DNA of 64,000 nucleotides from NCBI GenBank assembly GCA_963702095.1, contig OY969706.1, forward strand, positions 864,001 to 928,000, written 5' to 3'. Shown here piece after piece: positions 4,313 through 60,788 of the stretch (position 1 is the first letter of the stretch; each line of letters begins with the position of its first letter). The position numbers were made by a program, and so were the translations under genes. The notes beneath the pieces are model-generated. The model made no database searches. It had not been told where the DNA came from and was given only the letters and a program-made list of their open reading frames with translations. The stretch comes from Candidatus Bathyarchaeota archaeon. Lineage in GTDB: Archaea > Thermoproteota > Bathyarchaeia > Bathyarchaeales > Bathycorpusculaceae.

Positions 4313-4447
4313 CTGTTCTGCTTGCGGAAAGCTCCACAACCAGCCTGCAACCCTTTGGCGTTGCAGAATAAAAAAACACAGTTGCCCCTTTGCCCACTGG
4401 AAGATGATGAGTAAGGGCGGCTCTGCCTTCATCTAACAATAGAAAAA
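4313..4447 (+). repeat. Dispersed 135-nt structured extragenic repeat, copy 1 (subfamily A)
   Basis: CTGTTCTGCTTGCGGA..CAACCAGCCTGCAAC...GAAGATGATGAGTAAGGG...TAGAAAAA; colinear with five other copies. Confidence 0.85.
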
Positions 4448-4470
4448 AAAATCAGGCACACAAAAAGGGT

Positions 4471-4686
4471 CTATGGGAAACCGACGACACGCATAAGAAC
4501 CGTTGCCAAAAAAGCCAGTCCACATCCAACCCCCGTGTACCTGAGCAACTGCTTATCAAGCACGATTCTCGAGGAGTAATAAGACGAAGAATACAGCAGT
4601 TCCGAAGTGGTAAGCAAAATAATCGCTGCCACTGCAAGCCAAAGACCAATATCGGGGATTGATAGAGGAAAAATCATAGTTTTCAC
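4471..4686 (-). CDS. Small two-TM membrane protein of the glycan island
   Basis: Two hydrophobic helices; abuts the upstream gene at 4687. Confidence 0.65.
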   Translation of the reverse strand: MKTMIFPLSIPDIGLWLAVAAIILLTTSELLYSSSYYSSRIVLDKQLLRYTGVGCGLAFLATVLMRVVGFP

Positions 4687-5493
4687 CTAAACAAAAGTAT
4701 ACGTTACTAAAACACTGTTTCCGCCTGAAGGTATTTGTTCTTGGATAATCACGGTTTTGCCCGAGGTCTTAGCCAGTGCACTTGCTACTGCACTTACAAC
4801 TGGGCAGCCTAGCAGGTCAACGCTTCTGGGTTTACTCTCAGGATCATAGAGGCTGTCATAGATGATGCCTGAAGCTTTGAACTGGGCACCATTATGTGTC
4901 AGCGTCATGTCGGCGCTTCGGGCAAGATTAAGATTCTCAGTTAAACACTTGGGCAATATTGCTGAGAGGTCAGTTAGACCAATTTTGCTTAAATCCAATC
5001 GCAGTTGCCGCTCAACCTGAGCCATTATACCTGAACCCGGCGAAGTCACAAATACCCCGCGGCTTTGCGCAGAGATAAATTTGCCCTGCGCCAACTCGTC
5101 AACAGAGGGTTTCCCATCGAAGCTTTCTGAAATGAAAACCACGGGTTCACGTAGGTTCTTTAAGTAATCAGGCAAAGCCACGTCTCTTGGGTACGCGGGA
5201 ATGTAGTAGCCTCGTCCACTGTATTTTAAATCGTTAATCATGCGGTCAATGGTGGAATAGCTCGAGCGTGCACTGCTGTCGAGTATGCTGCCTTCAACGT
5301 ATTTCCCTGTTCGGGTTAACGCGAATACAGCACCCCAGAAAGTTAAGCCTAACCCGATGAAAGCGGCGATTTGCTGGTTGAAAAGCATGGAGAAGGCAAG
5401 CAATAAAAACCCAAGGGCTAAAAATCCGCCTGCAATACCCATTGCAGAGGTACTTTTCTTTTGAACTGGCTTCAAATTAAAAATCAACTCCAA
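4687..5493 (-). CDS. Hypothetical membrane protein (2 N-terminal TM plus soluble domain)
   Basis: 268-aa ORF, N-terminal TM pair, LLGCPVVSAVA motif. Confidence 0.7.
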   Translation of the reverse strand: MELIFNLKPVQKKSTSAMGIAGGFLALGFLLLAFSMLFNQQIAAFIGLGLTFWGAVFALTRTGKYVEGSILDSSARSSYSTIDRMINDLKYSGRGYYIPAYPRDVALPDYLKNLREPVVFISESFDGKPSVDELAQGKFISAQSRGVFVTSPGSGIMAQVERQLRLDLSKIGLTDLSAILPKCLTENLNLARSADMTLTHNGAQFKASGIIYDSLYDPESKPRSVDLLGCPVVSAVASALAKTSGKTVIIQEQIPSGGNSVLVTYTFV

Positions 5494-5558
5494 AAATTAT
5501 TACTAAAAAAACAGCTATGACGCTTCTAATATAACTACACAACCGTTATGTTTAAATT

Positions 5559-7293
5559 TTATCTATTTATTTCTGCGGGTTCAGCCGGAAGTTTCTTATC
5601 AAATTTGCTTCGGCACAACTTCTGCATGTAGGAAAGAGGCAGATGGAGGAATTTGGAGACTAATCCTGAACCTGAAAACATCGCGCGGAAATTCTCGATA
5701 TCCATACTGTTGATTGCACCCAACAGAGGCGCCGTAGCCAAATAAACCAGCAAAAACACGCTCAGACCAGCAAAAAGGGTCACAATGTAGGGCCAACGTA
5801 CCACGCTGATAAGCAAATACGCGACGCCCGAAGCAATGAGGGATGCGCCCAAAATTTTAGCTGAAATCACAAAATCAGCTTTTACCTTGTAGTGTTTCCA
5901 ACTCCAGACTAAACCCCAAATCATGCCTGGCAGGCTTGCGACGAGGGCCCCCAATAACCCGGCGATTATCGCATAGGTCGCTGCTACTTGACCGTTACCA
6001 CCCAAGTTATAGGCGAACGCCACCAGAAAATACGCAAGCGGCAACCCCACAGCTAAAGACAGGGCACTTTGCTTCATAATTTGTTTTGTTCTGGCCAATT
6101 CCTGTTTGGAAGGTGCCTATGCTGATGTTTCCCAATAGGACAAAGAGGTTTACGGTTGCGGAGAGCGCCAGAAATATGGGTGCCAAAGGAAACTTGGGGG
6201 TGGCGTCGGGGGTAAACAGGGAGTGGATTATGCCGTCCTGTGGAAACAAGGTGTTAACTAAAGGCGTCGCCAGGGTGATTAGCATCATTGTTGCGGGAAC
6301 CAGCAGCAGAGCCGTGTACTTAACTGAGGACGAAAAAACGGTTCTTATGAGTTCAGGTTCTTTTTCAGGGTTAATTTTTGAGAAAACGGGGAACAGGGCG
6401 GTGGCAACTGGAAAAGAAACGAAGGTCAAGATGACGGTGAAGTTGGTGGCAGTAAAATAGTTGCCCATTGTCCAGCCATAGGGGTTGCCTGCGGCGACGT
6501 CGCCTGCGCCAGCGTAGATGCCCATGGTGAGCGCGAAAACCAGCGGCAACACTCCGATGACGATGGTGGATACGGTGAGGGGTAAACCGAATTTTAACAT
6601 GGGTTTTAGGGTTTGTTTGACGTCGCATCTGCCCACTCTGCATTTCCGCAGGGGTCTGTAGAGGGCGTAGTAAACTATGACTATGCTGATGATGCCGCCA
6701 GCGAGAATTGAAACCATCGCTGCGTAGACCGCGCCCAATACGCCAAAACCAAGCACGATCAAGAGGGGACCCAGAGCGGTTTTGATGACAGCGGCGAAGA
6801 TTTGGGTGAAACTGTTAAGTTTCATGCGTTCATAACCGACGAATATGCCGCCTGCAGCAGCGGCGATGGCGCCTGCGAACACGGAGAGAGACATAACGGA
6901 GATGTAGAGGGATAACTGTGAGGCATCCTGTGGACTCATTATCCACGCGATGGGTTGAGCTACTGCGAAGCAGACCACTGACAGGAGGATTCCGCTGACG
7001 AGTTCGAAGATGACGCCTGAAACGATAACGTCATGGATTTCCGAGTCTTTACCCGCAACTCGTAAGCCAGCAATCTGCTTGGTCATCGCCGAGTTGATGC
7101 CCCAGTCCCGGAAGAAATTGATGATTGAGGAGGGAATCAAAGCCATGCCGTAGAGTCCGACGCCTTCGGCGGGCAGAAGCATCCCTAAAAGTATGGTGCC
7201 GACAGCCATGATGATGGTGGAGCCGGCGACGCCGAGTAGCAGGTGGAAGCTGCCGGTGGCGGAGGATTTGCCCATCTCTAAAGCTTTATCCAT
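5559..7293 (-). CDS. Wzx/MurJ-like oligosaccharide flippase, split by a 1-nt frameshift near 6092
   Basis: ORFs 6007..7311 and 5559..6098 join as ...FQTGIG/RTKQIMKQSALSL...; polytopic MOP-family features (DWGINSAMTK, LFPVFSK). Confidence 0.8.
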
Positions 7294-7709
7294 TCCAGCA
7301 CCCCAAAACAAGATAAAAAATTAATTTTAGAAAATAATTTTATAGTCTTTCAAAAATAACTCAAAGCCCGGAGCCCATCCAACCCCTTGATAAGGACGCT
7401 TGGCAGTTCCGGATACAGTTTATGGAATATTGCAGCCCATCGAAACGCGGCTGGTCGAACGTGTCTATTCTGTTTTGTTAGCATTCGGTAGCTTTAGCCG
7501 TGGTGAGGGGTTGTGTTGTGGAGGGAAACGCTTCTGACATTTTTCTGCTGTCGTCCAAGGGGTCAATCTAGTGACAAGCGGCGTTCTCTAAGCTTGTTAA
7601 GTCCACTTTGCAATCCAACCGCTCGATTTGGCAAGATAGCGCATTGGACTTTTCAAAAAGGAATAAAATTGATTCAATCGTAGAGAGGTCAAATTCAGGA
7701 AGAGAGAAA

Positions 7710-8783
7710 ATGAATAAAGAGACTTTCGGAAAAAAACTTCATTCGCGGCCCATAAAAAAAATCTCTAAACCCCTTGCAATAGCCATCAGCGTACTATTCA
7801 TCGTTGGCATGGTGTCAGTTTTTGCAACACAATCAGCAGACGCTGCAACTTCTGTTCTCAACATCTCAAGTGGCCAATGGATATGTCAAGCGCATACAAA
7901 TGTTGAACCAATTACAACGTATAATATTCCTCACACAGAAGGCACTCGCAGTGCAAGCGGCGTGTCCAATGTAGAAAACTGCTACCTTCCACAGGCAATC
8001 TTTAGAGGTTATTGCCGCTGGGATGCAAACGGCGGATCCTTCAACCTGCAAAGCTACCCAATGCTAAGCTTCGATATATGGTGTGATAGAGTAATGGAAA
8101 TCAACGTCGGCGTGGTAGATACCACAAACGGTGGATGGAACGCAGCCGGTGTTAATATTGCAGACACCTATCATAACGGACAAGCCAACACTCCACCATA
8201 CAACAATTTGTATGGTTCAGGAACAGTAAAGTCCTCAGACGGTTATTGGCTATTAATGGTAGGTCCAAGCGACGGAAGCACCCAACACTACACACTCGAC
8301 TTAAGAACCATGGGCGTCAGTCTTTCGCATATTGGGCAAATCGTCTTTGACGTAACCTGCAATCACCAAGCCAACATCAACTGGAAAATCGAGAACATAG
8401 TGGTTTCCACCGACGGAGTCGTTCCAGCAAACCCGCAACCCACAGCTTCACCAACAGCAGCCCCAACCGCAGCACCTACACCGACTGCAACGCCCTCACC
8501 AACTCCAGCGCCCACAACAGAACCCACAACGACCCCCTCACCAACTACCGCGCCTACAACAACCCCAACACAGACTCCAGAACCAGCAACGCCTTCACAT
8601 CCAACTCACGTCACCCCATCACCGACCCCAGTAGCAACACCTTCACCGGAGCCAACTATTGCACCAACACCCACATCACTGACAAACCCAACAGTTACGC
8701 CAAACCAGCCTTTTACTATTCATCATAGCTGGTGGTGGAACTGGTTCAGTTGGTTCCGCGGTTGCATGTGGTTCCACTTCTAA
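7710..8783 (+). CDS. Secreted protein: putative carbohydrate-binding beta domain, Pro/Thr linker, Trp/Phe/His-rich C-tail
   Basis: ATG 7710 chosen because its 5' context matches the gene at 25172; signal peptide KPLAIAISVLF..ADA; PT repeats; ends HHSWWWNWFSWFRGCMWFHF. Confidence 0.75.
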   Translation: MNKETFGKKLHSRPIKKISKPLAIAISVLFIVGMVSVFATQSADAATSVLNISSGQWICQAHTNVEPITTYNIPHTEGTRSASGVSNVENCYLPQAIFRGYCRWDANGGSFNLQSYPMLSFDIWCDRVMEINVGVVDTTNGGWNAAGVNIADTYHNGQANTPPYNNLYGSGTVKSSDGYWLLMVGPSDGSTQHYTLDLRTMGVSLSHIGQIVFDVTCNHQANINWKIENIVVSTDGVVPANPQPTASPTAAPTAAPTPTATPSPTPAPTTEPTTTPSPTTAPTTTPTQTPEPATPSHPTHVTPSPTPVATPSPEPTIAPTPTSLTNPTVTPNQPFTIHHSWWWNWFSWFRGCMWFHF

Positions 8784-8810
8784 ACCCCTTCCTTTTTTAT
8801 TGTTTTTGTT
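8784..8810 (+). terminator. U-rich archaeal terminator
   Basis: CCCCTTCCTTTTTTATTGTTTTTG right after the stop; similar CCCTTC(C)TTTTT after the genes ending 26743 and 60612. Confidence 0.5.
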
Positions 8811-8831
8811 GGGTCTGTTTTTGCCTTCGAG

Positions 8832-9647
8832 TTACATCCATTTTGACTTGTTAAAATAACCCAGTTTGCTGGCAACCGTATAGACTAGAAACTTGTCGAG
8901 CGGATAATATTTTTTGCAGTAGTGACATAACTCAAGACTAGACTGCCTATCGCGGAACCGCTTAACCACCGTGGCATAATTATCCTCCAACAAGTTCCCT
9001 ATCGTATGTTCTAGCTTAAAGTCCATGTCACAGGTTTGTACTCTGCCATCTGGCATCACGACAAGTTGAGGTGTTGCAGTTTTTCGGCAGAAACCGACCT
9101 TCCGTGGTTTCGGTAGAATGCCCCTGCACAGGTTCTCTCTTTCGTTGCTAATGAACAGGTCATTCATGGTGATGTACTGCACGTTGGGGATTCCCTGCAT
9201 GATGCAGAAAATGTTTTCCTTATACTCGCTGGTTAACTGGAAGTTTGTGTTTTTGCCATCGGGTAAATGCAGCACAAACCCTTCGTACCTTAAATCAAGC
9301 AGGTCCTTGACGGTTTTGTTGGATGCACCCTGCAGTGTCGTTGCAACATGAATTCGGTAGCCTTCCTGCTGAGCATATTTCGCCATCTCAGTAAAAGATG
9401 GATTAACACAGGGTTCGCAGAAACCTGAGAAATCAATCATTACACTCTTTGGAATATGGCTCAGCATCATTTTGAAGTTATGTAGACTCATCAGGCGCTC
9501 GTTTCTGCCGTAGTTTCTAAGTAACACTTCTTGGGGACAATACTTTTGGCAGTTTACCGGGCACCCTATAGCCAATGTGAACTCCACATATTCGTTTGAA
9601 TAAAAATTAGTCGCGCGGTCAACAGCGCTTAATTGTTTAATACCCAT
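8832..9647 (-). CDS. Radical SAM/SPASM(twitch) domain protein
   Basis: CPVNCQKYC cluster motif, FSGFCEP, C-terminal C..VMPDGRVQTCDMD..IGN..CHYC. Confidence 0.8.
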   Translation of the reverse strand: MGIKQLSAVDRATNFYSNEYVEFTLAIGCPVNCQKYCPQEVLLRNYGRNERLMSLHNFKMMLSHIPKSVMIDFSGFCEPCVNPSFTEMAKYAQQEGYRIHVATTLQGASNKTVKDLLDLRYEGFVLHLPDGKNTNFQLTSEYKENIFCIMQGIPNVQYITMNDLFISNERENLCRGILPKPRKVGFCRKTATPQLVVMPDGRVQTCDMDFKLEHTIGNLLEDNYATVVKRFRDRQSSLELCHYCKKYYPLDKFLVYTVASKLGYFNKSKWM

Positions 9648-9859
9648 AAAATCGCCTCTTTGTTTGCTATACTAAAAAGCCGCCAATTAACAGAATCCAG
9701 CGGCAGCTTATAAATTTTTAGCTAGACATAGCAAACAATTCTTCGGAGAGCGATTCTTCGATAACCGGTTTATGCTCCAGATTCTAAAAATGATGAAGGG
9801 GACACTGCCTTTTCCGTAAAGGCGACGCTTTGAGACGCCTATTCTGACGCAACAAGAAA

Positions 9860-10843
9860 TTAAAGATTGATTTTGTTTTTATAGGCTTCTGAAATAGCCT
9901 CCAAATCCCTCAGCCCATCTAAACCAGTGGGTTGGGGGGGTTGGTCATTTTGCAGGCAATCCACGAAGTACTGCAACTCGTCAAAATGTGGCTGGTTGAA
10001 AGTGTTTATGCCTCTGGTCAACATCTGATAGGCATTGGCGACTGTAGGCGGGGTTGCATGCTGCACAGAAACATTTCGAACACTGCCCAAAACGTTGAGC
10101 CGCAGCAAGTATTCTTGGGAGTACCAGCCCACGTTGACAACTGCTAAGGTTCCTGAGTTGAAGCGGGCCAGCACCATGGCTGAATCCTCGAAATCCATGT
10201 TGTATCGGTAGCCGAATTGCCCCTTGATGGCGGTGATTTCGCCGAAGAGCATGCGTAACAAGTTGATTATGTGGCAGCCTAAGTCAACTAGTACTCCGCC
10301 GCCGGATCTGGCTGGGTCAAACCACCAGTCAGGCACAGGAGCAGGCGAGTGGCCGTCGGCTCGGTGCACAAAAGGCCCTGCACATACATAGGTTGCGAGG
10401 GCGTTTTCGACGTCTCCGACTAAGCCGTCTGCCATGTCCTGCTTGATCTTTTGGAAATGCCGATTAAACCTCATTGGATAACCCAGCATAAGCTTAACTT
10501 GGTTGCGCTGGGCAGAGGCGATTACTTTTCTTGCGTCTTCAACGGTGACGGCGATGGGTTTTTCGAGGAAAATGTCTTTATGGGCTTCAGCGGCCTGCTG
10601 GGCGCAGTCGAGGTGCAGATGAGTCGGCAGTGCAATTAGAACCGCGTCGATTTGGGGGTCCTTGAGCATTTCGCTGTAATTGGTGAAAGTTTTCTTTACC
10701 CCCCGTGCCTTGGCGCTCTCCAATGCCGACTTAGATGTGTCTGCAACAGCCGCAACTTCAGCGTTCTTAAGCATTAAGGCGTGTTTGAGGTGAAGTTGGC
10801 CGATGCCGCCGATTCCGACTATACCTAACTTTTCAGTATGCAC
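9860..10843 (-). CDS. Gfo/Idh/MocA oxidoreductase
   Basis: GIVGIGGIG, EKP and GGGVLVDLGCH motifs; GGAGG RBS before GTG at 10843. Confidence 0.9.
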   Translation of the reverse strand: MHTEKLGIVGIGGIGQLHLKHALMLKNAEVAAVADTSKSALESAKARGVKKTFTNYSEMLKDPQIDAVLIALPTHLHLDCAQQAAEAHKDIFLEKPIAVTVEDARKVIASAQRNQVKLMLGYPMRFNRHFQKIKQDMADGLVGDVENALATYVCAGPFVHRADGHSPAPVPDWWFDPARSGGGVLVDLGCHIINLLRMLFGEITAIKGQFGYRYNMDFEDSAMVLARFNSGTLAVVNVGWYSQEYLLRLNVLGSVRNVSVQHATPPTVANAYQMLTRGINTFNQPHFDELQYFVDCLQNDQPPQPTGLDGLRDLEAISEAYKNKINL

Positions 10844-10856
10844 AAATAATCCTCCC

Positions 10857-11760
10857 TTACTCCAGTCCCATTCGCCTGCCAAGCCCAACGGTCCGCAGGG
10901 TCTTCTTAAGTCTGGCCTTTGGCTTTCATTTTGGAGGTTACTTTGGGGTATATTGCCCTGAAAGCTTCGAGTGGCTCACCCTTTGCTACATAAGCGCGTT
11001 TGCCTACGCCTTCGCGTTCAGCAACTTCAAAATAGGGGATTTTAGCGGGGTTCAACCAGGCGATTTTTGCGGCGGCAACATCTACGGCGACAGGGTCAGT
11101 GGACGCCATTACTAAACCCATTTTTCGGGGTTGCACGCCTGCGCCGATGTTGTTGTCGATTAAGCAGAGGTCAAAAGGCATGGCTTTGTTCAATGCGACG
11201 ATAACGTTGCCTAGGTCGCTATGGTACACGAATTTTTTTTGGATTGGGTTGCAGCCAAAGATGTTTTTAAGTGCACAAGTAAGTTTGACGGGGTCTACAG
11301 TGTATTTTATGTGGGCTATGTTGATTTTTAAGTCGGCGTCGCCGATAGTGTTTGGCACATTAAAATCGTAGTTTTTGCCGTTGCATGTAACGCATACGTT
11401 GCGTGCTGGATCTTCGGTGAGGTTTATTAGTCGCACGTTTTTTTCTTGCGCGAGCTTCTCGTAACCTAACATTCTAAAAGCGTATTTGCATCGCATAGCC
11501 GAAGCATCCGACTCCACAACCGCAATGTCGATGTCAGGCGAGATTTCCATCCGCAGCAAATCAATCAGCGCCGCCACAAACTGGGGCTCAGTGGTTTGCC
11601 CAGTGGTGCAGTCCCAGTAATAGCACAGGTTAGGTTTAATCACAACCCTCTGTGCATCTGCGGGGAAGCTATAGCCGATTAGGTTTAGCGATTGCGTAAT
11701 CGCATCCTTAAACGGGGAATCGGTTAGGCTGGATATTTTAACTAAGCTTACAAGACTCAT
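10857..11760 (-). CDS. DUF362 family protein (probable 1-nt frameshift near 10920)
   Basis: VIKPNL, TTEP, ALKNIFG and DPVAVD motifs. ORF track ends at 10906, but a shifted frame KARLKKTLRTVGLGRRMGLE* ends at 10857 next to the downstream RBS. Confidence 0.8.
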
Positions 11761-11797
11761 AACCCAAACTTTCCTGGTTTGATAGAAGCAACTGAAA

Positions 11798-13435: not shown

Positions 13436-13467
13436 AAAGACACTTCGCTACAGACACAATGATTGTG

Positions 13468-14415: not shown

Positions 14416-14526
14416 TAAAACCAGTCTAATTCACCAGTTAACATAGAATCGATTCAATATATGAATGGTTATGGAAGACAGATACGGTGCGCCTCTAATC
14501 GTGAATCAAGTTTTGGTCGGTTCGCT

Positions 14527-14661
14527 TTTTTCTTTAGTTGTTGTTGCCGAGAACCGCTTATACACAACAACAACCAGCCGGCTGTGTAGGGCGTTGTATT
14601 TTGGTACAGGCTTCCACTTCAGGTTGCAGGCTGATTGTGCCGACTTCTGCAAGCAGAACAG
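14527..14661 (-). repeat. Dispersed 135-nt repeat, copy 2 (subfamily B)
   Basis: Minus strand CTGTTCTGCTTGCAGA..CAATCAGCCTGCAAC...CGGCTGGTTGTTGTTGTGTATA...CAACAACAACTAAAGAAAAA. Confidence 0.8.
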
Positions 14662-14682
14662 CAATTTTGATCTATGTAGAGT

Positions 14683-16304: not shown

Positions 16305-16311
16305 TTTCTCT

Positions 16312-16746: not shown

Positions 16747-16749
16747 ACT

Positions 16750-18944: not shown

Positions 18945-18949
18945 TCGTT

Positions 18950-22996: not shown

Positions 22997-23024
22997 AAAA
23001 ACAGATCCTATAACAGTAAATCGT

Positions 23025-23158
23025 TGGTTCTGCTTGAGGATTTGCCCTCAACCAGCCAGCAACCCAACTCCATTGCAGAACACAAAATACAGCTATCTGC
23101 CAAGCCCCCAGAAGAAGATGAGTAAGGGGCGCTCTGCCATCACCTTAAACTAGAAAAA
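23025..23158 (+). repeat. Dispersed 134-nt repeat, copy 3 (subfamily A)
   Basis: GTTCTGCTTGAGGATTTGCCCTCAACCAGCC...GAAGAAGATGAGTAAGGG...CTTAAACTAGAAAAA. Confidence 0.85.
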
Positions 23159-23201
23159 CAAAAAAACGAATCAGCATTTTTGGCCGCAGCAAAATCAGAT
23201 G

Positions 23202-23864
23202 CTAATATTCCCAGTTAACGTCCTTTTTTATCACGTGCGCCGGCACTCCAGCGGCTAAACATTTTTCAGGAATGTCTTTGGTGACAACTGCGCCCGCACC
23301 AATAACTGAGCCATCCCCAATTTTAACGCCTTTTAGTACCAGCACCCGGCGACCTATGAATACGTGTCGTCCTATTTCTATTGGCGCTGCCACAACTGCC
23401 CCCTCTCTTGCTATCCCATGAAAGTCTGTATCAAGGAGTTCGACATCCCAGGAAATAAGGCTGTTCGACCCGACCTTGATACTCTTTGATGCGATAATAA
23501 CCGTGTTCGAGTTAACGACAACATTATCTCCCAGTTCAATACATGCGTTTTTCTGTGCGCCAATAACTACCCCTTTGCCTATTCGAGCGCTCCCGTTAAT
23601 TACTAGTTTGCTGCCCTCATCCATCCTCAGTTGGCAGGGTGCAGTCGACGGAAAAAAGTCAGTGTATCCTATTCCCAGTGTAAAGTAGCCGTTGTTTATG
23701 ATTTGAGCCTTTTTATGTATGGCTAACAATGTTTTTCCATCAATCAGAAATGAATCAAACAAAGACTTGTCTGAGGCGGTCACTCCGTTCTTGGAGACTT
23801 GATAGCTCTTATAGATGGTTCTGGGACCTATGCCGTTTTTCCTTATCATAGCCCAATTAACCAT
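23202..23864 (-). CDS. Hexapeptide-repeat O-acyltransferase (maltose/galactoside acetyltransferase-like)
   Basis: DTDFH and IGDGSVIGAGAVVTKDIP..AGVPA motifs. Confidence 0.85.
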   Translation of the reverse strand: MVNWAMIRKNGIGPRTIYKSYQVSKNGVTASDKSLFDSFLIDGKTLLAIHKKAQIINNGYFTLGIGYTDFFPSTAPCQLRMDEGSKLVINGSARIGKGVVIGAQKNACIELGDNVVVNSNTVIIASKSIKVGSNSLISWDVELLDTDFHGIAREGAVVAAPIEIGRHVFIGRRVLVLKGVKIGDGSVIGAGAVVTKDIPEKCLAAGVPAHVIKKDVNWEY

Positions 23865-28613: not shown

Positions 28614-28648
28614 CTCAATCGCCCGCTAACGGTAGGTCAAAATTTTTA

Positions 28649-28783
28649 TTTTTCTAGTTTAAGACGAAGAGAGAGTCTGCCTTGCTCATCATCTTCTTAG
28701 GGGCTTTGCAGACGGTTCTGTTTTGGCATGTGCAACGCCAATGGGTTGCAGGCGGGTTGAGGGCAAATCCTCAAGCAGAACAG
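28649..28783 (-). repeat. Dispersed 135-nt repeat, copy 4 (subfamily A)
   Basis: Minus strand CTGTTCTGCTTGAGGATTTGCCCTCAAC..CTGCAACCCATTGGCGTTGCA...AGAAGATGATGAGCAAGG...CTTAAACTAGAAAAA. Confidence 0.85.
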
Positions 28784-28818
28784 CGGATTTTTGATTAACT
28801 GATAAAGAGCTGCTGCGT

Positions 28819-40625: not shown

Positions 40626-40760
40626 TTTTTCTAGTTTAAGAAGAAGAGAGTGTCGCCCTTGCTCATCATCTTCTTGCGGGTTATTCAGGCGGTTGCGTTT
40701 TAGGTTCTGCAAAGCCAGTGGGATGCAAATTTGTTGCGGAAGTGGTGGAGAGGGATAAGG
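40626..40760 (-). repeat. Dispersed 135-nt repeat, copy 5 (subfamily A, 5' end eroded)
   Basis: Minus strand ...CCGCAAC..TGCATCCCACTGGCTTTGCAGAA...AGAAGATGATGAGCAAGGG...CTTAAACTAGAAAAA. Confidence 0.8.
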
Positions 40761-48883: not shown

Positions 48884-48894
48884 GCGGGTAGGGT

Positions 48895-49557: not shown

Positions 49558-49566
49558 TTGCCCGCC

Positions 49567-51270: not shown

Positions 51271-51690
51271 CAACAAAACGTTAAGTAAAGACCTTATAAA
51301 AATTGCTATGACAACACAAATAACGGATCCTTTGACACACGGAACGGTTTGCAATCACGTAATTATTCGCCTATTTAGGGCTTGAATTTGGCGTTTTCTT
51401 TCGGGTGTGGGGTTGGCAATTGATTTCTGAGAGTCGAGGGATAATTAGGAGAAGAAAATTCTCGAAGGGAAATGCAAAAACCTTCAAGCAGAAATACTGT
51501 AACCTTGGCGCGATAAAGGAACTAGTGCATTGCTTTTGATACGCACTATAAATGTCTGGTTGTGGGTTGCCTGATTGATTGGGCTTACTTTGCGAAGTTG
51601 TCTTTGCAACTTTGCGAATTGGAATTGGCTAAATCGTTAAGCTGGTTTCTCAAGAAGTACTATATTTGCATCCTTAGTAAGAGAGAATAC

Positions 51691-51912
51691 ATGCAAAGGC
51701 TACTGAGTCAGAAAATCAGGTTTTTTTTCCTACCATTGGCCTTGCCTCTTTTGATTATCGGTTGGTTCTTATTAAACCGACCGAAAAACACTCAGAAGTA
51801 TACTCCAAAAACGAAAGCCAAGCCCACATCGCTTAATGTCACAGAGGCTAAAGCGGCTATAGAGCTTTGGGGTGAGCCTGTTCCTACTCAAACACTCAAT
51901 CCAACGCAATAA
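51691..51912 (+). CDS. Small single-TM protein
   Basis: MQRLLSQKIRFFFLPLALPLLIIGWFL..; TATA-like sequence at 51660. Confidence 0.55.
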   Translation: MQRLLSQKIRFFFLPLALPLLIIGWFLLNRPKNTQKYTPKTKAKPTSLNVTEAKAAIELWGEPVPTQTLNPTQ

Positions 51913-52245
51913 GGAGAAAAAACCGAATAAATGCATAAACATGCAAAAATCTGGTTTTCATGAATCAAGCGAATCACAGGCACTCCTCACCCCAGTAACC
52001 GACTCAACTCCGAGCTTATAATGTTTTTTCCCCAATTCTTAACCCAAAAATTCATTCGCCCAGGCAAAATAATTTGCCGAAATGGGCTGATGCGGACTGC
52101 GCCGTTTTATGAGGGATATGTGATTCTCTGAGAGCAACATAAAAGGTGCGTAGGCTCAACTGTGCCTGGAAGCCTTGGATGTTTGGTTTTTCGGCGGCAA
52201 GGCTTAAATTTTGATGCAACAATACCCCGTATCGAGGAGAAAAGC

Positions 52246-53322: not shown

Positions 53323-53366
53323 CCCTAAACCTTTAAAACCCGCCACTTACCACATAGAATATAGCA

Positions 53367-53615
53367 ATGGTGATTTTTTTGGCACAGAAAAAAGTAACCA
53401 GACAAGAACTAGAAGAAAACAACGGACAAAACGGCAAACCAGCCTACATACTCTACAAGGGCAAAGTCTACGATGTAACGGAAAGCAGTTTCTGGATGGA
53501 GGGCGAACACATGGGCATGCACAACGCCGGCAAAGACCTCACCGAAGATTTAGAGATGGCGCCGCATAAAGAAGAGAACTTTAGCCGCGTAAAATACGTC
53601 GGCGACTTAGAGTAG
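53367..53615 (+). CDS. Cytochrome b5-like heme/steroid-binding protein
   Basis: ELEENNGQNG..YKGKVYDVT..H.AGKDLT..APH..VG.L pattern. Confidence 0.9.
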   Translation: MVIFLAQKKVTRQELEENNGQNGKPAYILYKGKVYDVTESSFWMEGEHMGMHNAGKDLTEDLEMAPHKEENFSRVKYVGDLE

Positions 53616-54839
53616 GCATTGTAGCACAGAGTCAATCTGCACTATATCCGCTAACACATTTTTTACTTCCACCTCAGCTAGGGTGGTGCGGTTCTGGTGG
53701 ATTTCGGTTACTGTTTGGGTTAAGCTGTCAAAAGCTCCTTTAACGTCCAAGTCGTTGTTCATGTGCGCTTCAAACTCGCTTCGCAGTCTGCCGACATATG
53801 AATCGCCCTGACACTTCTCAGATGCACTCATACCCTGCAGGTCCGCAATCATGCGCCTCAAAGAATCCATTTGCTCACTTGCTTGCCCAAGCTTTTCAAA
53901 GGTGAAATTGAGCACTTCTCGGTATGGACCATAAATTAGGAAAAACCGCAGTTGAGATCCGCTAAAACCCTTGGCTGCAACATCGCTTGTGTAGTACACG
54001 TTACCTTTGCTCTTGGACATTTTTTCTCCGTCAACATAGAGGTGTCCGCCGTGTAGCCAGTAACGCGAAAACTGTTCGCCGGAAACTGACTCGGCGATTG
54101 CGAGCGTGTAGTCATGGTGCCGCACCAAGTTGTCGATGCCACCACAGGCGATGTCTATGCTGTAGCCTAAGGTTTTTGTTACGATTGCGGCGTCTTGGAT
54201 GTTCCATGCTGGGCGACCACTACCGACTGGCGTATCATAGCAGACGTCTTCTAGGCCGCAGCCATGCCAAATGATGAAGTCACCCATGTTCCATGGCGTG
54301 CCAGGATAGGTGTCTTTATGGTAACGCCGATGCCGCTTGGGCCATTTACTCATGTCGAGGTGTGCCAGTTTTCCGAAGCCCCGAAATTTAAGGGGGTCAA
54401 AATAGGCGTTTTTGACGCCTCGATAGATGTACCAGTAAGCGTAGCCGCAATCAAGAAGCTTAGCAACCAAATCAGTAGCTTGGTCAACCGCCCGCGACGC
54501 CCTCACTGGATAATCGGGTTTTTTTATGTGCAGTAACTTAAAGTCTTCAAAGAAGACCGCTTCATTCTTCTGGGTTAACGCCTCCACGGTTAACCCCTCT
54601 TTTTTAGCTTGGATAATGGCTTTGTCCTCCACGTCAGTTAACGCCATAGCCCGGGTAACTTTGTAACCGAGGTATTCGAGGTAGCGTTGGAGTATGTCTT
54701 CGAAGAGGAAAGTGCGGTAGTTGCCGATGTGCGCCCGCTGATACGTCGAGGGTCCGCACGTGAACATTTTGACTTTGCCCGGTTCGGCGGATTGGAAGGG
54801 CTCGATTTTACGTGTGAGGGTGTTGTAGATGTTAAGCAC
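53607..54839 (-). CDS. Cysteine--tRNA ligase-like protein with atypical active site
   Basis: YNTLTR, CGP, HIGN, GRP.W and KMSKS present; WNIQD replaces WHIEC and HHDYT replaces HHENE; only 410 aa. Confidence 0.8.
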   Translation of the reverse strand: MLNIYNTLTRKIEPFQSAEPGKVKMFTCGPSTYQRAHIGNYRTFLFEDILQRYLEYLGYKVTRAMALTDVEDKAIIQAKKEGLTVEALTQKNEAVFFEDFKLLHIKKPDYPVRASRAVDQATDLVAKLLDCGYAYWYIYRGVKNAYFDPLKFRGFGKLAHLDMSKWPKRHRRYHKDTYPGTPWNMGDFIIWHGCGLEDVCYDTPVGSGRPAWNIQDAAIVTKTLGYSIDIACGGIDNLVRHHDYTLAIAESVSGEQFSRYWLHGGHLYVDGEKMSKSKGNVYYTSDVAAKGFSGSQLRFFLIYGPYREVLNFTFEKLGQASEQMDSLRRMIADLQGMSASEKCQGDSYVGRLRSEFEAHMNNDLDVKGAFDSLTQTVTEIHQNRTTLAEVEVKNVLADIVQIDSVLQCLL

Positions 54840-55308
54840 TGGTTTTTTCCTCTTGCTCTAGCATTTGGAGGGTTTCTTTTGCTTCCTCCACATGCCGTTG
54901 CGCTTGAGTCTGCGAATTAAAAATGTGTCGGACCACGCCCTTCTTGTCTATAATGTAGGTGACTCTGCCAGGCAGAATCCCCATACTATGCGGCACCCCG
55001 TAGAACTCCCGCACTTTGTTGCCCACATCAGCCAACAGTATAAACGGCAGCCCATAATGCGTTGCAAATGCCACATGTGATTCGACGCTTTGGCCGCTTA
55101 CGCCCAACACTTCGGCGCCTAAATCTGCCAGTTGCTGGTAGCTGTCGCGGAAACTGCAGGCTTCTTTTATGCATCCGGGCGTTTCATCTTTGGGGTAGAA
55201 GTAGAGAACTATGTTTTTTTTGCCTAGGTACTCTGATAGGGTTACGTTGTCGCCCATTTGGCTGGGTAATGTAAAATCTGGGGCTTTATCGCCAACTTTA
55301 ACCGTCAA
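54832..55308 (-). CDS. bcp: Peroxiredoxin Bcp/PrxQ
   Basis: VGDKAPDF and LYFYPKDETPGCIKEACSFRD motifs. Confidence 0.95.
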   Translation of the reverse strand: MTVKVGDKAPDFTLPSQMGDNVTLSEYLGKKNIVLYFYPKDETPGCIKEACSFRDSYQQLADLGAEVLGVSGQSVESHVAFATHYGLPFILLADVGNKVREFYGVPHSMGILPGRVTYIIDKKGVVRHIFNSQTQAQRHVEEAKETLQMLEQEEKTSA

Positions 55309-55488
55309 AAATTTTCACCACAAAATAGTGGCTTCTTAGTGCTATTATGTTTTTTCTTATTTCCCGCTAATGCTATGAACAGCGGTTTTTAGCACCCACA
55401 TTAAACTGAACAACAAATTTTAAGCACTTACACGTCTTGACTTTAGAGAACGCCCATATATTCTGATTTTAAAAGATTCTTGACTAAT

Positions 55489-56715
55489 TCACTTTTTTCT
55501 TCTGTAAATGACACCCACCGCTACCGATATTGCAGCTATTACTATCACAGCAGTTGAAGCGATTATTGCGTTTTGCGTCTCATTCGCAATTGGGACTCTA
55601 GGGTTCGGTTCTTGGGTGGGAGTGGGTGTTTGGGCTAACAATGGGTCAGGCCCTGTACCATAGCCGAGGGGCGAGTACCGCTCGTTTAACGCGAAATGTT
55701 CGACAGTGTAACTGTCTGGTAGAGAATCAAAGTAATCTGGATAATGGTAGGTTGTATGAATGCCTCCTATGGCATAGATAAGATCGTTTGCCGTGGCAAC
55801 GCCGAAACCAGAGCGATCTGTGGGCTTAGCGATGTCAACACTCCAGCTGTTATCGAATGGGTTATACACTTGTGCAGATTGATAATGCAGAAGAGCAGCA
55901 TCAAACAAATAGATTCGTAGTGACGCATTTTTGCCGTTAGTTATGGCAGCTACAGAGTAAGCGGCGTATAGCGGTGAATGCGCACCCGAACTCCATTGAT
56001 CTGTTTTTGGGTCGTAAATCTGGGTTGAATTCTGAACTACTATATTTTTTAGTTGGAGTCCACCAAAGACGTATACCTTATTAGCGAAGGTAGTTGAGGC
56101 ATACCATCGGGTACCGACTGGGATTGACGCCTTTGTAGTCCATGTGTCTGTGGTTGGATCATATTCTTCATTTACTGAGAGACTGGCGTCGGTATAGGTG
56201 TCATAGGTTCCGGGTGTCTGTCCGCCGATTAGGTAGATTTTGCCGTTTACTGTATTGGCTTGCAAGTAAACTCTGGCTGTTGGCATGGCTGCTTTGGTTT
56301 CCCATGTGTCGGTTGTTGTATCGTATACTTCGTTTACGGCTGCGTATATTGGTGCGTGGTCTTCGGGTTCTTGGTGGTAGCCTGTGATTCCGCCGATACA
56401 GTATATCTTATTTTGGACGACAGCTATAGCGAAATTGTATCTAGCAGTTGGCATTGGTGCCTTGTATTCCCAACTGTTTGTTGCAGGATCATATACCTCG
56501 TTTGTTGATAATGCTTCACCATCATCGCCTCCTATCGCATAAATCTTATCGTTGACGGACACTACGCCTAAACCTGCTCTTGCTTGTTGCATCGGCGCCA
56601 TTTGAGTCCAAACGTTGTTTGATGCCCCAACGTTACTACAAAGACTTGGTTGAAGGACTATCAAAATGAGTAAGATGGATAGCACCGAGAGAACCGTTAT
56701 TTTTCTCAAGCGCAT
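55489..56715 (-). CDS. Secreted Kelch-repeat surface protein with C-terminal TM
   Basis: Signal peptide; about six KIY.IGG..YDP.T.TW..MPT.R repeats; PT linker, TM, RRKK. Confidence 0.9.
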   Translation of the reverse strand: MRLRKITVLSVLSILLILIVLQPSLCSNVGASNNVWTQMAPMQQARAGLGVVSVNDKIYAIGGDDGEALSTNEVYDPATNSWEYKAPMPTARYNFAIAVVQNKIYCIGGITGYHQEPEDHAPIYAAVNEVYDTTTDTWETKAAMPTARVYLQANTVNGKIYLIGGQTPGTYDTYTDASLSVNEEYDPTTDTWTTKASIPVGTRWYASTTFANKVYVFGGLQLKNIVVQNSTQIYDPKTDQWSSGAHSPLYAAYSVAAITNGKNASLRIYLFDAALLHYQSAQVYNPFDNSWSVDIAKPTDRSGFGVATANDLIYAIGGIHTTYHYPDYFDSLPDSYTVEHFALNERYSPLGYGTGPDPLLAQTPTPTQEPNPRVPIANETQNAIIASTAVIVIAAISVAVGVIYRRKK

Positions 56716-56865
56716 ATACATAACTAAGTGATTGGTGTTATATGAGGTTTTGTATCCAATCAATTAGGGCAACAATTTAGTTACTAACCATAACTACTAA
56801 TAGCGAAAAATTTAAAAGGAAACTCTTTCACATCAATATTATTAGCATTCAACCGCCAAAAGGTT

Positions 56866-59800
56866 ATGCCTATGAAATCGTTTCTCATTACAACAATCAT
56901 CCTAATTATTCTTATCACAAGCGTCTTTACAGTTACTTTACCCAAAACACAGGCAACTGAACTTAACTTAACTCAAAAAGGGGAAATATTTCTTGGCAAT
57001 GTTTTAAATTTGGACTTAACTAAATACTATATAGAAACAAAAACATACCCTTTAGATAGCTCGTCTTTATACTTAGGCATAGTTCCGCAAGACAGCATCG
57101 GCTACAAACTTACTTCGGAACATAACAAAATAGAGCTTGTGTGTACTTTTATCGACGGAAATTTACATATGCTTTTTGTAACCAACAATGAAGGCACAGC
57201 ACAACTTCTCGAAACTGACAATAATAGCCCCATTGAGGTAGCAAGGAGTTTTCTAGCGAGCTATCAGAACTTCGCTGATAATGCACTATTTGGCGGATTG
57301 GTTTCAACTCTAGAGAAAGCGCAGCAGGGTGAAAATTTTACTACAACGCTTGGAAACATTGCGCTAGAGGCTACATATGCAGCAGATTCTGCCACATTCA
57401 GGTGGCATTATGCAGCTAACGGGGCTGAAGCGTCATATTCAAAGTTCATTTCGCTTGTCGTAAAAAATGGTTTAGTGACTGGATTTATTGACAACTGGCA
57501 ACTGTACACTGTAGGAAACAATGCAGTAAATCTTACTGAAAAAGAAGCCTCAGAGATTGCCTTACAAGCAACAAAAGCTCATGTAGCAGGATTTGAAAAA
57601 TATGGTCTAAATCAAAATAATATTAATGGCTCAAATGTACGCTGGGCAAGGCTTATTTTTGATAACTCTTTAAACGTAAGTGTTCCACGTAGTAAAGACC
57701 TTCTAGAATTATTTCCAGTTTGGCGAGTCGGTATTGCATTAGATAAATGGTATGGCTCAATGTATGGGGTAGAAGTTGACATTTGGGCGGATACCAAAGA
57801 AATCCGGTCTATCGAAGAAGCCTGGGGCGACTTACCTCTATCAGATCAACAGGAAATTGTTAACACCACTTCAATTCAACAGAATATCGCTAACCCCATT
57901 GCTACCCAGCAGGTCGGCGCTTCTATTCCAACTAAGGAGTCAGAACTAAACATTCAGCCGATATTAATAGTAACAGGCGGTTTTCTTTTTGGCACAGGAC
58001 TTACAATTACTTATTTGAGTTGCAAAAGAGGTAAATTGCCCAAATATTTACTTAGGTCTAAGCCGATGGCTCTAGTTACGTTATCATTAATAGTATTACT
58101 TCTCGTTCCAATTGGCTTAGTTAGTGCAAACACCAAAACGGCTGTCGTTTGGGGAGCAGAAAGTACTGGTGCAACCGGTTATCAAGGACCTGATGGACCA
58201 AGTTGGCGTAAGCAAGCATGCGAGGTCACACAGCAACAATCAACAGCCATTACTATCAGGAACTACTTCGCGAATTACGGAGGATATACGGCGTATAATC
58301 ATCAAGGAACTGTTGGGCCATCTACACATTTAGCTATATTAAGTGATATTAATTCCTACAATTCTGTTAACAGTCGAGCTGTCTATATCGATTTTGATCA
58401 TGGTAACTGGTATGACAAGTCATTAACAGATCGGAATCACTTTATTTTTGAAGATCAGGTTGGAACATTAATCGGCACTTTTGATGATTATCTAAATCAT
58501 CGAGTAGTTTCTAACCCAACTGGGCTTGTCTATGATGATGAGATAAATGCCAGAACAAATAGCAGCACAACGTTATTTGTTTTGATAAACGCTTGTAATT
58601 CAGGCGCCCTATTTAATTTACTAGATGGCACGAGATGGCAGGGTACTAGCAACAAAATAGGTTTGCCTTATGGTTTTACGCACCGGACAGTCGAAAACAA
58701 AGAAGACCCTATACCGGGTATTTCGTTCGATATTAAAAGTCATATGAGCGACGATGCATATTTTTATCCAGATGATGGCTGCCAAGTTTTCATGGGTTTC
58801 GTAGGAGGATCAATTTCTCTAAGCCAAAAAATGCCCTACCCTGACGGCACAAACTATTATTCAACATTTATAGAGAGATTCTTCTACGACGCACTATATT
58901 ATGACGATACATCGGTAAATTGTGCTCTTGATATGTCTTCTTTTGAGACCCTTGGTGGCAGATATTACTCAGACACATTGTGCCCTCTTAGAAGTTTTAC
59001 AGCTTATTGGTGGATGCCGCCAGAAACACATTTAAACCCCCTTGGGCCAGGTCATTTAGTTGTCTACGGTAACGGCAGAATTCAGCTCAAAAGTTTCAGC
59101 GATGACTTTAATGATGGTAATTACAATGGCTGGACAGTAATTCCTCCAGGTTCATGGACAGTAACGGGCGGCAAATTAAAAGCCCAACAGGGGAACTCAT
59201 TAATCCGAACCAACGAGCAATTCTCAAACGACCGATTCCTTCGAGCAAAAGTACAGACGCTCACAACTGGTACAAACTCATGGGATGTCGCTTGGGTTAT
59301 GGCTAAATATGTAGACAATAACAACAAAGTTTACGGGTTGATACACAAAGACGGTAAAGTAGAACTTTCTCTTTTTCGAAATGGGCAGCAATATCCATGG
59401 CAAAGTGCAGCCAACAGCACACTTCATCCTACTGATTGGCATACTATTGAAGTAAATATCGTGGGAAACAAGGGTTGGGTATTTGTTGACGGCGTATTCA
59501 AAATTAGTGGAACCAGCGATTACTTCGATGATTTTAGTGGCTATGCGGCACTACATACCCATACCTCGGCAACAGCTTACTTTGACGATATCACCGTTGT
59601 GGAACAACAACCCTGGTCTACTTATCACAAACTAACAGTCAATTCCTCTACAGGGGGTACCACAAGTATTGCCCCTGGCGTATACAATTATACTGCTGGT
59701 ACACCGGTTACCGTAACTGCTTATCCTTCTACTGGATATCATTTTAGCCATTGGCATGACTATGGCGTTGATGCCTGTACTCAAAACCCAATAACAGTGA

Positions 59801-60612
59801 CAATGAATGCGCCGCACAAGTTACAACCTCAGTTTACAGCCGACTATTACGTTACATTCCAAGTTGCGTCTGGTTCTGGAACCACTGACCCTAGTGTTGG
59901 AGTACATAGCTATAATCAGGGACAAGTGGTGCCAATACATGCTATTGCATCACCCGGACAAGTTTTCGACCACTGGGATAGCTTAGGCCTTATGAATATA
60001 GCAAATAGCCACTCAGCGGATACGACAGCGACTATATGGAGTAACGGGACAATTATGGCATATTTCCATCAATCGCAATGCTCCGTGACCGTAACAAGCG
60101 ATGGCCACCTCACTACGAATCCAAGCGGAACCAGCGTCTATACATACGGAGCAGCAATTCCGATTTCTGCGACAAATACACCCGGGTACGAGTTTGATCA
60201 TTGGGTTTCCCCTGGTAATACTATAGATAATCTCTACTCAGCCTCAACCACTGCCCACTTAACTAACGATGGAACCATAACTGCCATATCGCATCCTGCG
60301 GGAGTCACCTCTTGGACCGTTCATACTTGCTATTATGTTTATGATGGGTATGTGGGGACCGCGCAGGTTGGAGAAGATTGGCAGACGGTTGATGCGGGCT
60401 GGCATGATTTCTATTATCCAAATCAGTGGGAGGATCCTTGGTTCCCGGGGTATATGTCTGACTTCTGGTATGCAATTACTGACGACGGCTTGCAATCTTG
60501 CAATTATATTCCGTTCCATGTTCAAATAACACGCGATACTACGATTAATGTCTATTATATCACCAATTTCTCGGGAATGAGGGATTTTCCGCCTACGGAA
60601 GAAACAGGTTGA
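56866..60612 (+). CDS. Large multidomain surface protein: N-domain, TM pair, caspase/gingipain-fold domain, lectin-like domain, InlB-B/Flg_new-like repeats
   Basis: 1248 aa; DFDHG..INACNSG..FMGF..VYGN; FSDDFNDG...FDDITV; LTV..GGTT..G.Y..GY.F.HW repeats. Confidence 0.75.
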   Translation: MPMKSFLITTIILIILITSVFTVTLPKTQATELNLTQKGEIFLGNVLNLDLTKYYIETKTYPLDSSSLYLGIVPQDSIGYKLTSEHNKIELVCTFIDGNLHMLFVTNNEGTAQLLETDNNSPIEVARSFLASYQNFADNALFGGLVSTLEKAQQGENFTTTLGNIALEATYAADSATFRWHYAANGAEASYSKFISLVVKNGLVTGFIDNWQLYTVGNNAVNLTEKEASEIALQATKAHVAGFEKYGLNQNNINGSNVRWARLIFDNSLNVSVPRSKDLLELFPVWRVGIALDKWYGSMYGVEVDIWADTKEIRSIEEAWGDLPLSDQQEIVNTTSIQQNIANPIATQQVGASIPTKESELNIQPILIVTGGFLFGTGLTITYLSCKRGKLPKYLLRSKPMALVTLSLIVLLLVPIGLVSANTKTAVVWGAESTGATGYQGPDGPSWRKQACEVTQQQSTAITIRNYFANYGGYTAYNHQGTVGPSTHLAILSDINSYNSVNSRAVYIDFDHGNWYDKSLTDRNHFIFEDQVGTLIGTFDDYLNHRVVSNPTGLVYDDEINARTNSSTTLFVLINACNSGALFNLLDGTRWQGTSNKIGLPYGFTHRTVENKEDPIPGISFDIKSHMSDDAYFYPDDGCQVFMGFVGGSISLSQKMPYPDGTNYYSTFIERFFYDALYYDDTSVNCALDMSSFETLGGRYYSDTLCPLRSFTAYWWMPPETHLNPLGPGHLVVYGNGRIQLKSFSDDFNDGNYNGWTVIPPGSWTVTGGKLKAQQGNSLIRTNEQFSNDRFLRAKVQTLTTGTNSWDVAWVMAKYVDNNNKVYGLIHKDGKVELSLFRNGQQYPWQSAANSTLHPTDWHTIEVNIVGNKGWVFVDGVFKISGTSDYFDDFSGYAALHTHTSATAYFDDITVVEQQPWSTYHKLTVNSSTGGTTSIAPGVYNYTAGTPVTVTAYPSTGYHFSHWHDYGVDACTQNPITVTMNAPHKLQPQFTADYYVTFQVASGSGTTDPSVGVHSYNQGQVVPIHAIASPGQVFDHWDSLGLMNIANSHSADTTATIWSNGTIMAYFHQSQCSVTVTSDGHLTTNPSGTSVYTYGAAIPISATNTPGYEFDHWVSPGNTIDNLYSASTTAHLTNDGTITAISHPAGVTSWTVHTCYYVYDGYVGTAQVGEDWQTVDAGWHDFYYPNQWEDPWFPGYMSDFWYAITDDGLQSCNYIPFHVQITRDTTINVYYITNFSGMRDFPPTEETG

Positions 60613-60653
60613 ACAACTAAATCCCTTCTTTTTGCACTAGCTCAAAAATTTTA

Positions 60654-60788
60654 GTCATCTGCTTGTGGAAATCGCTACAACCAGCCTGCAACGGCCCTTT
60701 TAGCCTGACGCCAAAAAGCAACCTGCAGCCCAATCGGCTGGTTGTTGTTGTGTATAGGGGATTTTCTGCAACAACTACTATAGAAAAA
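60654..60788 (+). repeat. Dispersed 135-nt repeat, copy 6 (subfamily B)
   Basis: TCTGCTTGTGGA..CTACAACCAGCCTGCAAC...CGGCTGGTTGTTGTTGTGTATA...CAACAACTACTATAGAAAAA. Confidence 0.8.

Follow-up and report, generated by a model that had tools for sequence, protein, structure and literature searches.

An old intergenic repeat family with inverted termini in a Bathyarchaeia genome: the case for MITE-like elements

The stretch of DNA discussed here, referred to as the window, comprises 64,000 nucleotides of a Candidatus Bathyarchaeota archaeon genome (assembly GCA_963702095.1, contig OY969706.1, positions 864,001 to 928,000) and carries six copies of a short extragenic repeat between its positions 4313 and 60788. 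We favor, with somewhat better than even confidence, the view that these six stretches represent an old family of miniature, non-coding DNA transposons, similar to transposable elements of the miniature inverted-repeat kind (MITEs), that would have been moved in trans by a DDE-type transposase. The family is recognized by its copy number, its dispersal, its random orientation, its termini with their TA context, a few insertion differences between related genomes, and the neutral decay of resident copies, all of which are observed. It is undescribed, and it is most likely an ordinary genomic parasite and not an RNA gene. The main rival to this MITE-like reading is a modular repeat spread by recombination. 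In the coordinates given below, the label G000 refers to the genome studied here and G007 to its nearest relative.

The six copies, which were first noticed in a preliminary description of the window, are genuine: they align colinearly with a mean column identity of 71%, and when the 64-kb window is searched with a sequence model based on 37 members of the family, the same six come up and no seventh. A profile of the six gives 181 matches at E ≤ 1e-3 in the genome, a single contig of 2,937,366 bases (2.94 Mb) with 46.8% G+C. This number excludes a chance likeness of the six and confirms the expectation that many more copies would be found genome-wide. Nearly the whole profile is covered in 164 of the 181 matches, and the cores of these 164 make up 0.74% of the genome. 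The elements are short, dispersed, and non-coding, with a core of 132–135 nt and no conserved open reading frame (ORF). The fixed length reported for the window copies also holds for the family: of the 121 copies in which both the TTCTGCTTG and the CTAGAAAAA anchor are present, 68 have 132 nt between the two and 101 have 130–134 nt. Two subfamilies can be distinguished, an A-type with GAAGATGATGAG.../...CTTCATCT (103/164 copies) and a T-type with GGTTGTTGTTGTG.../...CAACAACAAC (55/164). What had been read as a triplet-periodic stem reflects the existence of these two subfamilies.

The copies are distributed over the two strands as if at random, with 86 on the plus and 78 on the minus strand (n = 164) and 78 strand runs where about 83 are expected. 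Their gene context was judged from crude gene calls, i.e., the longest ORFs of at least 90 amino acids (aa) chosen greedily, which gave 2,801 ORFs. On this basis 132 of the 164 cores are intergenic, and the other 32 overlap only ORFs of about 90–230 aa, mostly shorter than 170 aa, that are probably spurious. The intergenic cores are located in convergent (42), tandem (61), and divergent (29) regions, of which the genome has 534, 1,732, and 534, respectively; per kb, the convergent regions are enriched about twofold. In tandem regions 39 cores are closer to the upstream stop and 22 closer to the downstream start, and there is no strand preference, as the orientation of the gene is matched by 36 cores and opposed by 25. 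A called stop codon lies within 60 nt of 62 of the 132 intergenic cores. The window copies conform to the earlier statement that each lies 21–58 nt past a stop codon: the nearest stops are 23, 21, 43, 35, 58, and 41 nt from copies 1–6, the distance for copy 1 depending on a 71-aa ORF (4471-4686). Likewise, three copies have the same strand as the nearest gene and three the opposite strand, as reported.

The limits of 134–135 nt originally assigned to the repeat are too narrow. They mark the best-conserved core only, and where termini are recognizable CAG...CTG inverted repeats are present outside it. In many copies an inverted motif is found 15–25 nt outside the core on each side, with the consensus CAGTAGATCAAAATTTGG when read from the outside inward, and where the termini are recognizable the unit is about 172–262 nt long. 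The first 13 bases of the motif (CAGTAGATCAAAA, at most 3 mismatches) occur at the right place and in the right orientation on 30 of the 164 left sides and 27 of the 164 right sides; the corresponding controls (wrong orientation, or windows 100 nt further out) gave 0–3. With at most 4 mismatches allowed, at least one terminus is present in 74 of the 164 copies, and the termini occur in both the A-type and the T-type subfamily. Outside 29 of the 57 termini a TA is positioned at -3/-2, compared with an intergenic background of 6.7% (p = 2e-19). Among the 19 copies with both termini the CAG-to-CTG span ranges from 163 to 210 nt, and nine of these spans are 179–182 nt. A target duplication, if any, could equally well be one of 2 bp or of 4 bp. 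Across the genome the outer 14-mer (at most 2 mismatches) is found 53 times versus 50 times in the reversed sequence; it is significant only beside cores. The TTTTGATCTAC terminus is shared by other low-copy repeats of this genome.

The six copies in the window are delimited as follows.

Copy 1, 4313..4447, plus strand: A-type core, placed by alignment and model; the outer termini have decayed and are not placeable. Counterpart at the same G007 locus, 79% identity.

Copy 2, 14498..14676, minus strand: whole T-type unit of 179 nt with the core at 14527-14661 (alignment and model); inverted termini ATCGTGAATCAAG at 14498-14510 and GATCTATG at 14669-14676, from a reading of the sequence; TA immediately outside the unit at 14496-14497 and 14677-14678. 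Counterpart at the same G007 locus, 89% identity.

Copy 3, 23014..23158, plus strand: A-type, core at 23025-23158 (alignment and model); left terminus CAGTAAATC from 23014, preceded by TA-A (23011-23013); right terminus unrecognizable. Counterpart at the same G007 locus, 78% identity.

Copy 4, 28630..28801, minus strand: whole A-type unit of 172 nt with the core at 28649-28783 (alignment and model); termini CGGTAGGTCAAAA at 28630-28642 and TTGATTAACTG ending at 28801; TA one base beyond each end (28627-28628 and 28803-28804). Counterpart at the same G007 locus, 76% identity.

Copy 5, 40626..40760, minus strand: core with an eroded 5′ end, placed by alignment and model; no recognizable termini. 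Counterpart at the same G007 locus, 75% identity.

Copy 6, 60635..60816, plus strand: whole T-type unit of 182 nt with the core at 60654-60788 (alignment and model); termini CACTAGCTCAAAA at 60635-60647 and GATCTATTG at 60808-60816; no TA directly outside. A 5.5-kb stretch of G000 that is missing from G007 includes this copy, close to its right edge.

The erosion of copy 5, which had already been remarked upon, is seen in its match to model positions 22–143 only.

The G007 assembly consists of 150 contigs and shares 85–88% DNA identity with G000 over syntenic stretches. For 27 G000 copies the corresponding G007 loci were sought; six were not resolved (contig ends or unaligned stretches), and among the 21 resolved loci G007 has a copy at 15 and none at six. 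One of these six is a clean empty site. A unit of 262 nt (G000:140546-140807), which starts with CAGAAGACC, ends with GATCTACTG, and holds a core, is absent from G007, where TAT is present once (...CTC-TAT-GGTGG); in G000 the TAT is found on both sides of the unit. A second, rough case is the 182-nt unit at G000:1252238-1252419, which is missing from G007, where the spacer (45 nt) has diverged. Presence/absence at the unit boundaries is thus documented by one clean and one rough case, a small sample. The remaining absences fall in larger differences, i.e., the stretch with copy 6 and, for two copies, a variable region after a tRNA gene, or at a locus where the G007 stretch has no match. Over the 15 same-locus pairs the mean identity of the cores is 0.75, equal to that of the 120-nt flanks (0.75) and with that of random paralog pairs within G000 (0.70) little below. 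Resident copies therefore decay like neutral intergenic DNA. It appears that most copies were inserted before the split of G000 and G007 and a few later, and none is demonstrably active. Given the age of most copies and the lack of a partner enzyme in the searches of this genome described below, the family is here probably mostly a fossil.

On the MITE-like reading, whose mechanism is only partly shown, a complete unit would consist of the outer inverted termini, the 132–135-nt core with a hairpin near each core end (H1 and H3, see below), and an A/C-rich spacer. A DDE-type transposase acting in trans would bind the termini and the subterminal hairpins, and the unit would be cut and pasted into T/A-rich intergenic DNA at a TA, with duplication of 2–4 bases. 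Insertions in genes and promoters would be purged by selection, and the survivors would be those located just past stop codons in either orientation. The preliminary description left the choice between a non-autonomous element and a structured RNA module. The former is supported by the 181 matches, by the occurrence of the family in half of the genomes examined in the genus (60 of 120), and by empty sites that end at the inverted termini; the latter is taken up below.

The occurrence in 60 of the 120 genomes refers to matches of the family model at E ≤ 1e-5, often at least 26 per genome. Among 151 sampled genomes of the class, matches were confined to G000 and one genome of another genus in the same family, with none in the five further genomes of the genus of G000 included in that sample. 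In the genome of the other genus 21 matches were scored, most of them over nearly the whole model and with weaker scores. The conservation of length across genera while the sequence drifts is expected if transposition-competent master copies are under selection and resident copies are not. A metagenome scan with a 16-nt terminus returned 117 stretches, and the core was present in none of the 80 loci that were fetched, so these stretches are taken as chance matches. A scan of viral contigs with an exact 17-nt core block gave one IMG/VR contig with a weak and partial match (19 bits, model positions 12–73). As a side observation, copies in a sister genus (genome G216) are often flanked by archaeal-promoter-like boxes, TATA-rich + G5 + CTATAG; in G000 only 9 of 328 flanks have such a box within 110 nt.

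Several results weigh against the MITE-like reading. First, only one clean empty site is available. Second, six-frame searches of this genome gave no match to Y1_Tnp (PF01797; 6 of 14 control genomes matched), to the TnpB-type domain (PF07282; controls positive), or to DDE_3, the IS630-type domain (controls positive). A partner transposase is therefore missing among the Y1, TnpB-type, and DDE_3 classes; IS4/IS5, IS3, IS256, and IS110 transposases and tyrosine recombinases were not searched for. Moreover, a self-BLAST of the genome revealed no multi-copy repeat of the size of an insertion sequence. Third, DDE_3 genes occur in 19 of 81 congeners and are not found in G000, G007, or G005, while the DDE_3-richest genomes (G018, G006, G052, and G089) have no match to the element, and no matching termini were found at 12 DDE_3 loci of relatives scanned for the motif, three of which were also scanned for inverted repeats. 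An autonomous element with the same termini was hence detected neither in this genome nor at these 12 loci, and despite the TA context and the CAG(T) termini, membership of IS630/Tc1-mariner is not borne out by co-occurrence with the transposase. In this genome, inverted terminus pairs 0.5–4 kb apart were also sought; at most 2 mismatches gave only two 182-nt units, and at most 3 mismatches gave 368 pairs, which is noise and uninformative. Fourth, the termini are recognizable in about one-third of the copies, yet core blocks are 90% conserved, which is not what pure neutral decay predicts. Fifth, T-rich and C-rich bases (CCyTTTAW) are over-represented further out than the TA; given this conservation, the unit may reach beyond the TA, or a specific palindrome may serve as the target. 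Sixth, Smith–Waterman comparison of the 60-nt flanks gave no same-copy excess of direct or inverted repeats, in a test with low power for short, degenerate, A/T-rich termini and for a duplication of only 2–4 bases. Finally, the loci G000:138042 and 2622668 hold a T-type copy where G007 has an A-type copy, and their flanks are also dissimilar. These subfamily differences are not explained by simple vertical descent and point to independent insertion or replacement.

Some of these points are shared with the rival that survives best, a minority view that we nevertheless take as possible, in which the 133-nt core, the GTAGATCAAAATTTGG arms, and the promoter-like boxes are separate intergenic modules, which recombination or gene conversion would join, swap, and copy with no transposase devoted to them. 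It would account for a core that is much better conserved than the arms, for other repeats that end in the same arm, and for the two of 15 same-locus pairs in which G000 and G007 differ in subfamily and the flanks are unalignable. The 5′ half of the core also heads two unrelated segments, the 2.9-kb duplicated segment discussed below and a 3.4-kb segment found only in G007; copies of the other genus lack arms and lie beside TATA-G5-CTATAG boxes; and no transposase was found in the Y1, TnpB-type, and DDE_3 searches. However, arms are present in both subfamilies, which suggests that arms and core were joined before the family diversified, and the terminus-to-terminus span clusters at 179–182 nt. 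In addition, the limits of the one clean empty site coincide with the arms, and TA(T) is found at either end, as transposition predicts.

A related and more doubtful suggestion is that the element acts as a hot spot or substrate for gene gain, loss, and rearrangement, with re-used slots and an undescribed recombination or targeting mechanism. Several copies do adjoin indels or rearrangements, as judged by inspection only, and any count would be biased since G007 contigs often end at copies. If this suggestion is correct, it would mean that the same site holds members of different subfamilies in sister species and that segments of 0.6–5.5 kb come and go beside the element without a recognizable enzyme. 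If the link to indel breakpoints is true, it would also help to explain the gain and loss of gene cassettes in these genomes.

It is unlikely that the family represents a functional RNA or a cis-acting transcript element, such as a 3′ untranslated region stabilizer, a terminator, or a small RNA gene. Of the three hairpins proposed originally, H1 and H3 recur family-wide and H2 does not (z of -0.3 versus shuffles), although the reported examples of both H1 and H2 can be read in the alignment of the six copies. For H1 the mean z versus shuffles amounts to -1.2 on one strand and -2.0 on the other, and the corresponding values for H3 are -2.3 and -2.0; H2 and the spacer are without structure by this measure. 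That H1 and H3 are more stable than shuffles would suit an RNA, as would the proximity of many cores to stop codons (62/132 within 60 nt). A T-run is the usual archaeal termination signal, and the reverse strand of the element opens with one. Moreover, the pairing in H3 is preserved in three sequence variants, the A-type and T-type blocks and a third variant in the sister genus, and the mismatches in H1 are more often A-C than G-T, which is what G-U pairs formed on the reverse strand would predict.

Against this, H1 favors the reverse strand and H3 the forward strand, and this opposite preference is more easily reconciled with palindromes in the DNA than with one RNA. The H3 variants are self-complementary in different registers, suggesting a few founder events and not continuing covariation. 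Bases of H1 are 81.9% paired versus 17–46% for slid partners; covariation, which it had been proposed to look for, did not exceed the shuffles at H1 in any of five measures. Folding of the whole element against dinucleotide shuffles gave weak mean z values (-0.69 forward and -0.49 reverse), and RNAalifold yielded no consensus structure, whether for the 164 copies or for a set of 37 drawn from several species. Rfam 15 gave no match over the window at gathering scores, and permissive scans of copies 1 and 6 gave one match at chance level (18.6 bits versus a gathering score of 80) for one of them and none for the other. An RNA with a role in the adjoining transcript is also at odds with the tandem regions, where 36 copies are with the gene and 25 against, and with the observation that resident copies decay as fast as the flanking intergenic DNA. 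The lack of an Rfam match, of a consensus fold, and of H1 covariation, together with the random orientation relative to genes, leaves the proposed structured RNA module without support.

It is very improbable that the copies are attC-like sites at which a site-specific recombinase exchanges gene cassettes. Structure and length are kept better than sequence, copies lie at gene 3′ ends, and several are located beside segments that are found in only one of the two compared genomes. These similarities are offset by the dispersal of the copies round the chromosome on both strands, with no one-directional arrays (the integrase itself was not searched for), and by indel junctions that fall at no fixed point of the element. 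Least probable of all is a hairpin element that a Y1 (HUH) transposase would move in single-stranded form, i.e., a REP/RAYT or IS200/IS605-derived palindrome, for although the core has subterminal hairpins at both ends with weak terminal inverted repeats and the general flank test detects no duplication, this genome has no Y1_Tnp or TnpB-type match, the element is far longer than REP, and outer inverted termini with a TA context exist.

Other candidates were considered and rejected. The reverse strand of some copies can be read as a hydrophobic peptide; a small-protein gene is ruled out, as an ATG is present in 39 of 164 copies with the frame open in 22, and the reading frame differs between the two subfamilies. 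The 5′ module of the copies, which had a CRISPR-repeat-like look, is not a CRISPR repeat or a solitary unit of one, since the genome has no arrays and no exact 20-mer recurs at least 3 times at 50–100-nt spacing in the genome. A C/D-box interpretation of GAUGAUGA was dismissed by eye, because the motif is missing from the T-type and no D box was seen. Finally, a 2.9-kb segment that is duplicated in the genome with 87% identity (G000:197822-200718 and G000:988056-990947) begins with a 5′ half-element that runs to about position 85. It was rejected as a parent element: neither of its two ORFs (381 and 520 aa) gave a match in Pfam or PADLOC, and it is unrelated to other element-adjacent insertions. 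In its second copy the ORFs are broken into four shorter ones. The 3.4-kb segment found only in G007 is likewise headed by a 5′ half-core.

A number of places where copies meet differences between the genomes are recorded here in their own right. At G000:2619840-2620170 an element copy comes after the 3′ end of a tRNA gene, and beyond the copy part of the tRNA end is repeated over 27 nt (89% identity); the entire downstream region differs from G007. The arrangement resembles a scar left by an integrated element. Copies beside tRNA-like sequence were seen in three other genomes as well. At G000:2680140-2680510 an inversion breakpoint relative to G007 coincides with a 5′-truncated copy, and a 785-nt insert found only in G000 ends in another truncated copy (G000:2724439-2724497).

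In the window, the stretch absent from G007 that holds copy 6 (55355-60893; 5.5 kb, G+C 0.41) codes for a Kelch-repeat protein and for a protein of 1,248 aa in which InlB-type B-repeats are combined with a 3-keto-disaccharide-hydrolase-like domain. About 77 nt separate copy 6 from the right edge of this stretch, and in G007 the two flanks abut with an overlap of about 12 nt. Copy 3 is adjoined by a hexapeptide-repeat acetyltransferase gene (23166-23808), where G007 has about 51 nt instead. To the left of copy 1, about 100 nt of seemingly intergenic DNA (4175-4275) show about 2 differences from G007 and are far more conserved than the adjacent genes; this segment may be where the gene at 3451-4152 really begins, or it may be a small RNA. 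On the other side of copy 1, the minus-strand ORFs 4687-5493 and 4471-4686 are in the same frame with one stop codon between them. The downstream part, 4471-4686, is well conserved in G007, and read-through, a recoded stop, or a recent break are all possible.

The genome also holds another repeat family, not placed in the window, whose core TCTCTTTATGTGGGTGTGGCG is found in about 30 copies as an exact 20-mer, and the word GCAGAGCAAC occurs 27 times versus about 6 expected, often after ATAAGGGGA-like boxes. The methionine-tRNA ligase of this genome has its closest named relatives exclusively in Bathyarchaeia MAGs, with identities of up to 90%. A search for MCR alpha gave no match in this genome; a search for archaeal AmoA gave none here or in any control genome and is hence uninformative.

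Bathyarchaeia are abundant and uncultured, and almost nothing has been published on their mobile DNA. With about 180 copies per genome across half of the genus, the family can serve to mark assembly breaks and as a clock of past insertions, and it is a source of hairpins and T-runs at gene ends. As it stands, it is a fresh example of a familiar class of elements.

How, then, does the family compare with known systems? Bacterial REP/BIME, ERIC, Correia, and RUP elements are extragenic, close to stop codons, orientation-independent, and hairpin-forming, and they are associated with genome rearrangement. The family described here resembles them in being extragenic, stop-proximal, orientation-independent, and hairpin-forming, but it has no Y1/RAYT partner, its unit is longer than REP, and the sequences are unrelated. 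Stowaway-type MITEs and IS630/Tc1-mariner elements have a TA target and CAGT... termini. Here, the termini similarly start with CAG(T), TA is present outside about half of them, and an empty site with TA(T) once has been found. Unlike in these elements, an extra base is usually positioned between the TA and the CAG, a 4-bp duplication is equally compatible, and the IS630-type transposases of the genus neither co-occur with the element nor show the terminus motif (12 loci).

Among archaea, a 2024 review lists MITEs only for Sulfolobus, Halobacterium, Haloquadratum, Desulfurococcus, and a few others, and Bathyarchaeia are not in that list (PMC10969869); full-text searches, within the texts they reached, likewise returned no description of such a repeat in Bathyarchaeia. 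In the Sulfolobus solfataricus families SM1–SM4, as given there, 25–44 copies are present (PMC10969869). The approximately 180 copies in 2.9 Mb found here are several times that number, and the present family further differs in that its core is better conserved than its termini and no matching insertion sequence was found. In other respects it is like the prokaryotic MITEs represented by SM1–SM4: small, non-coding, multi-copy, intergenic, and present in both orientations, with inverted termini where these are recognizable, no transposase of its own, and polymorphism between related genomes.

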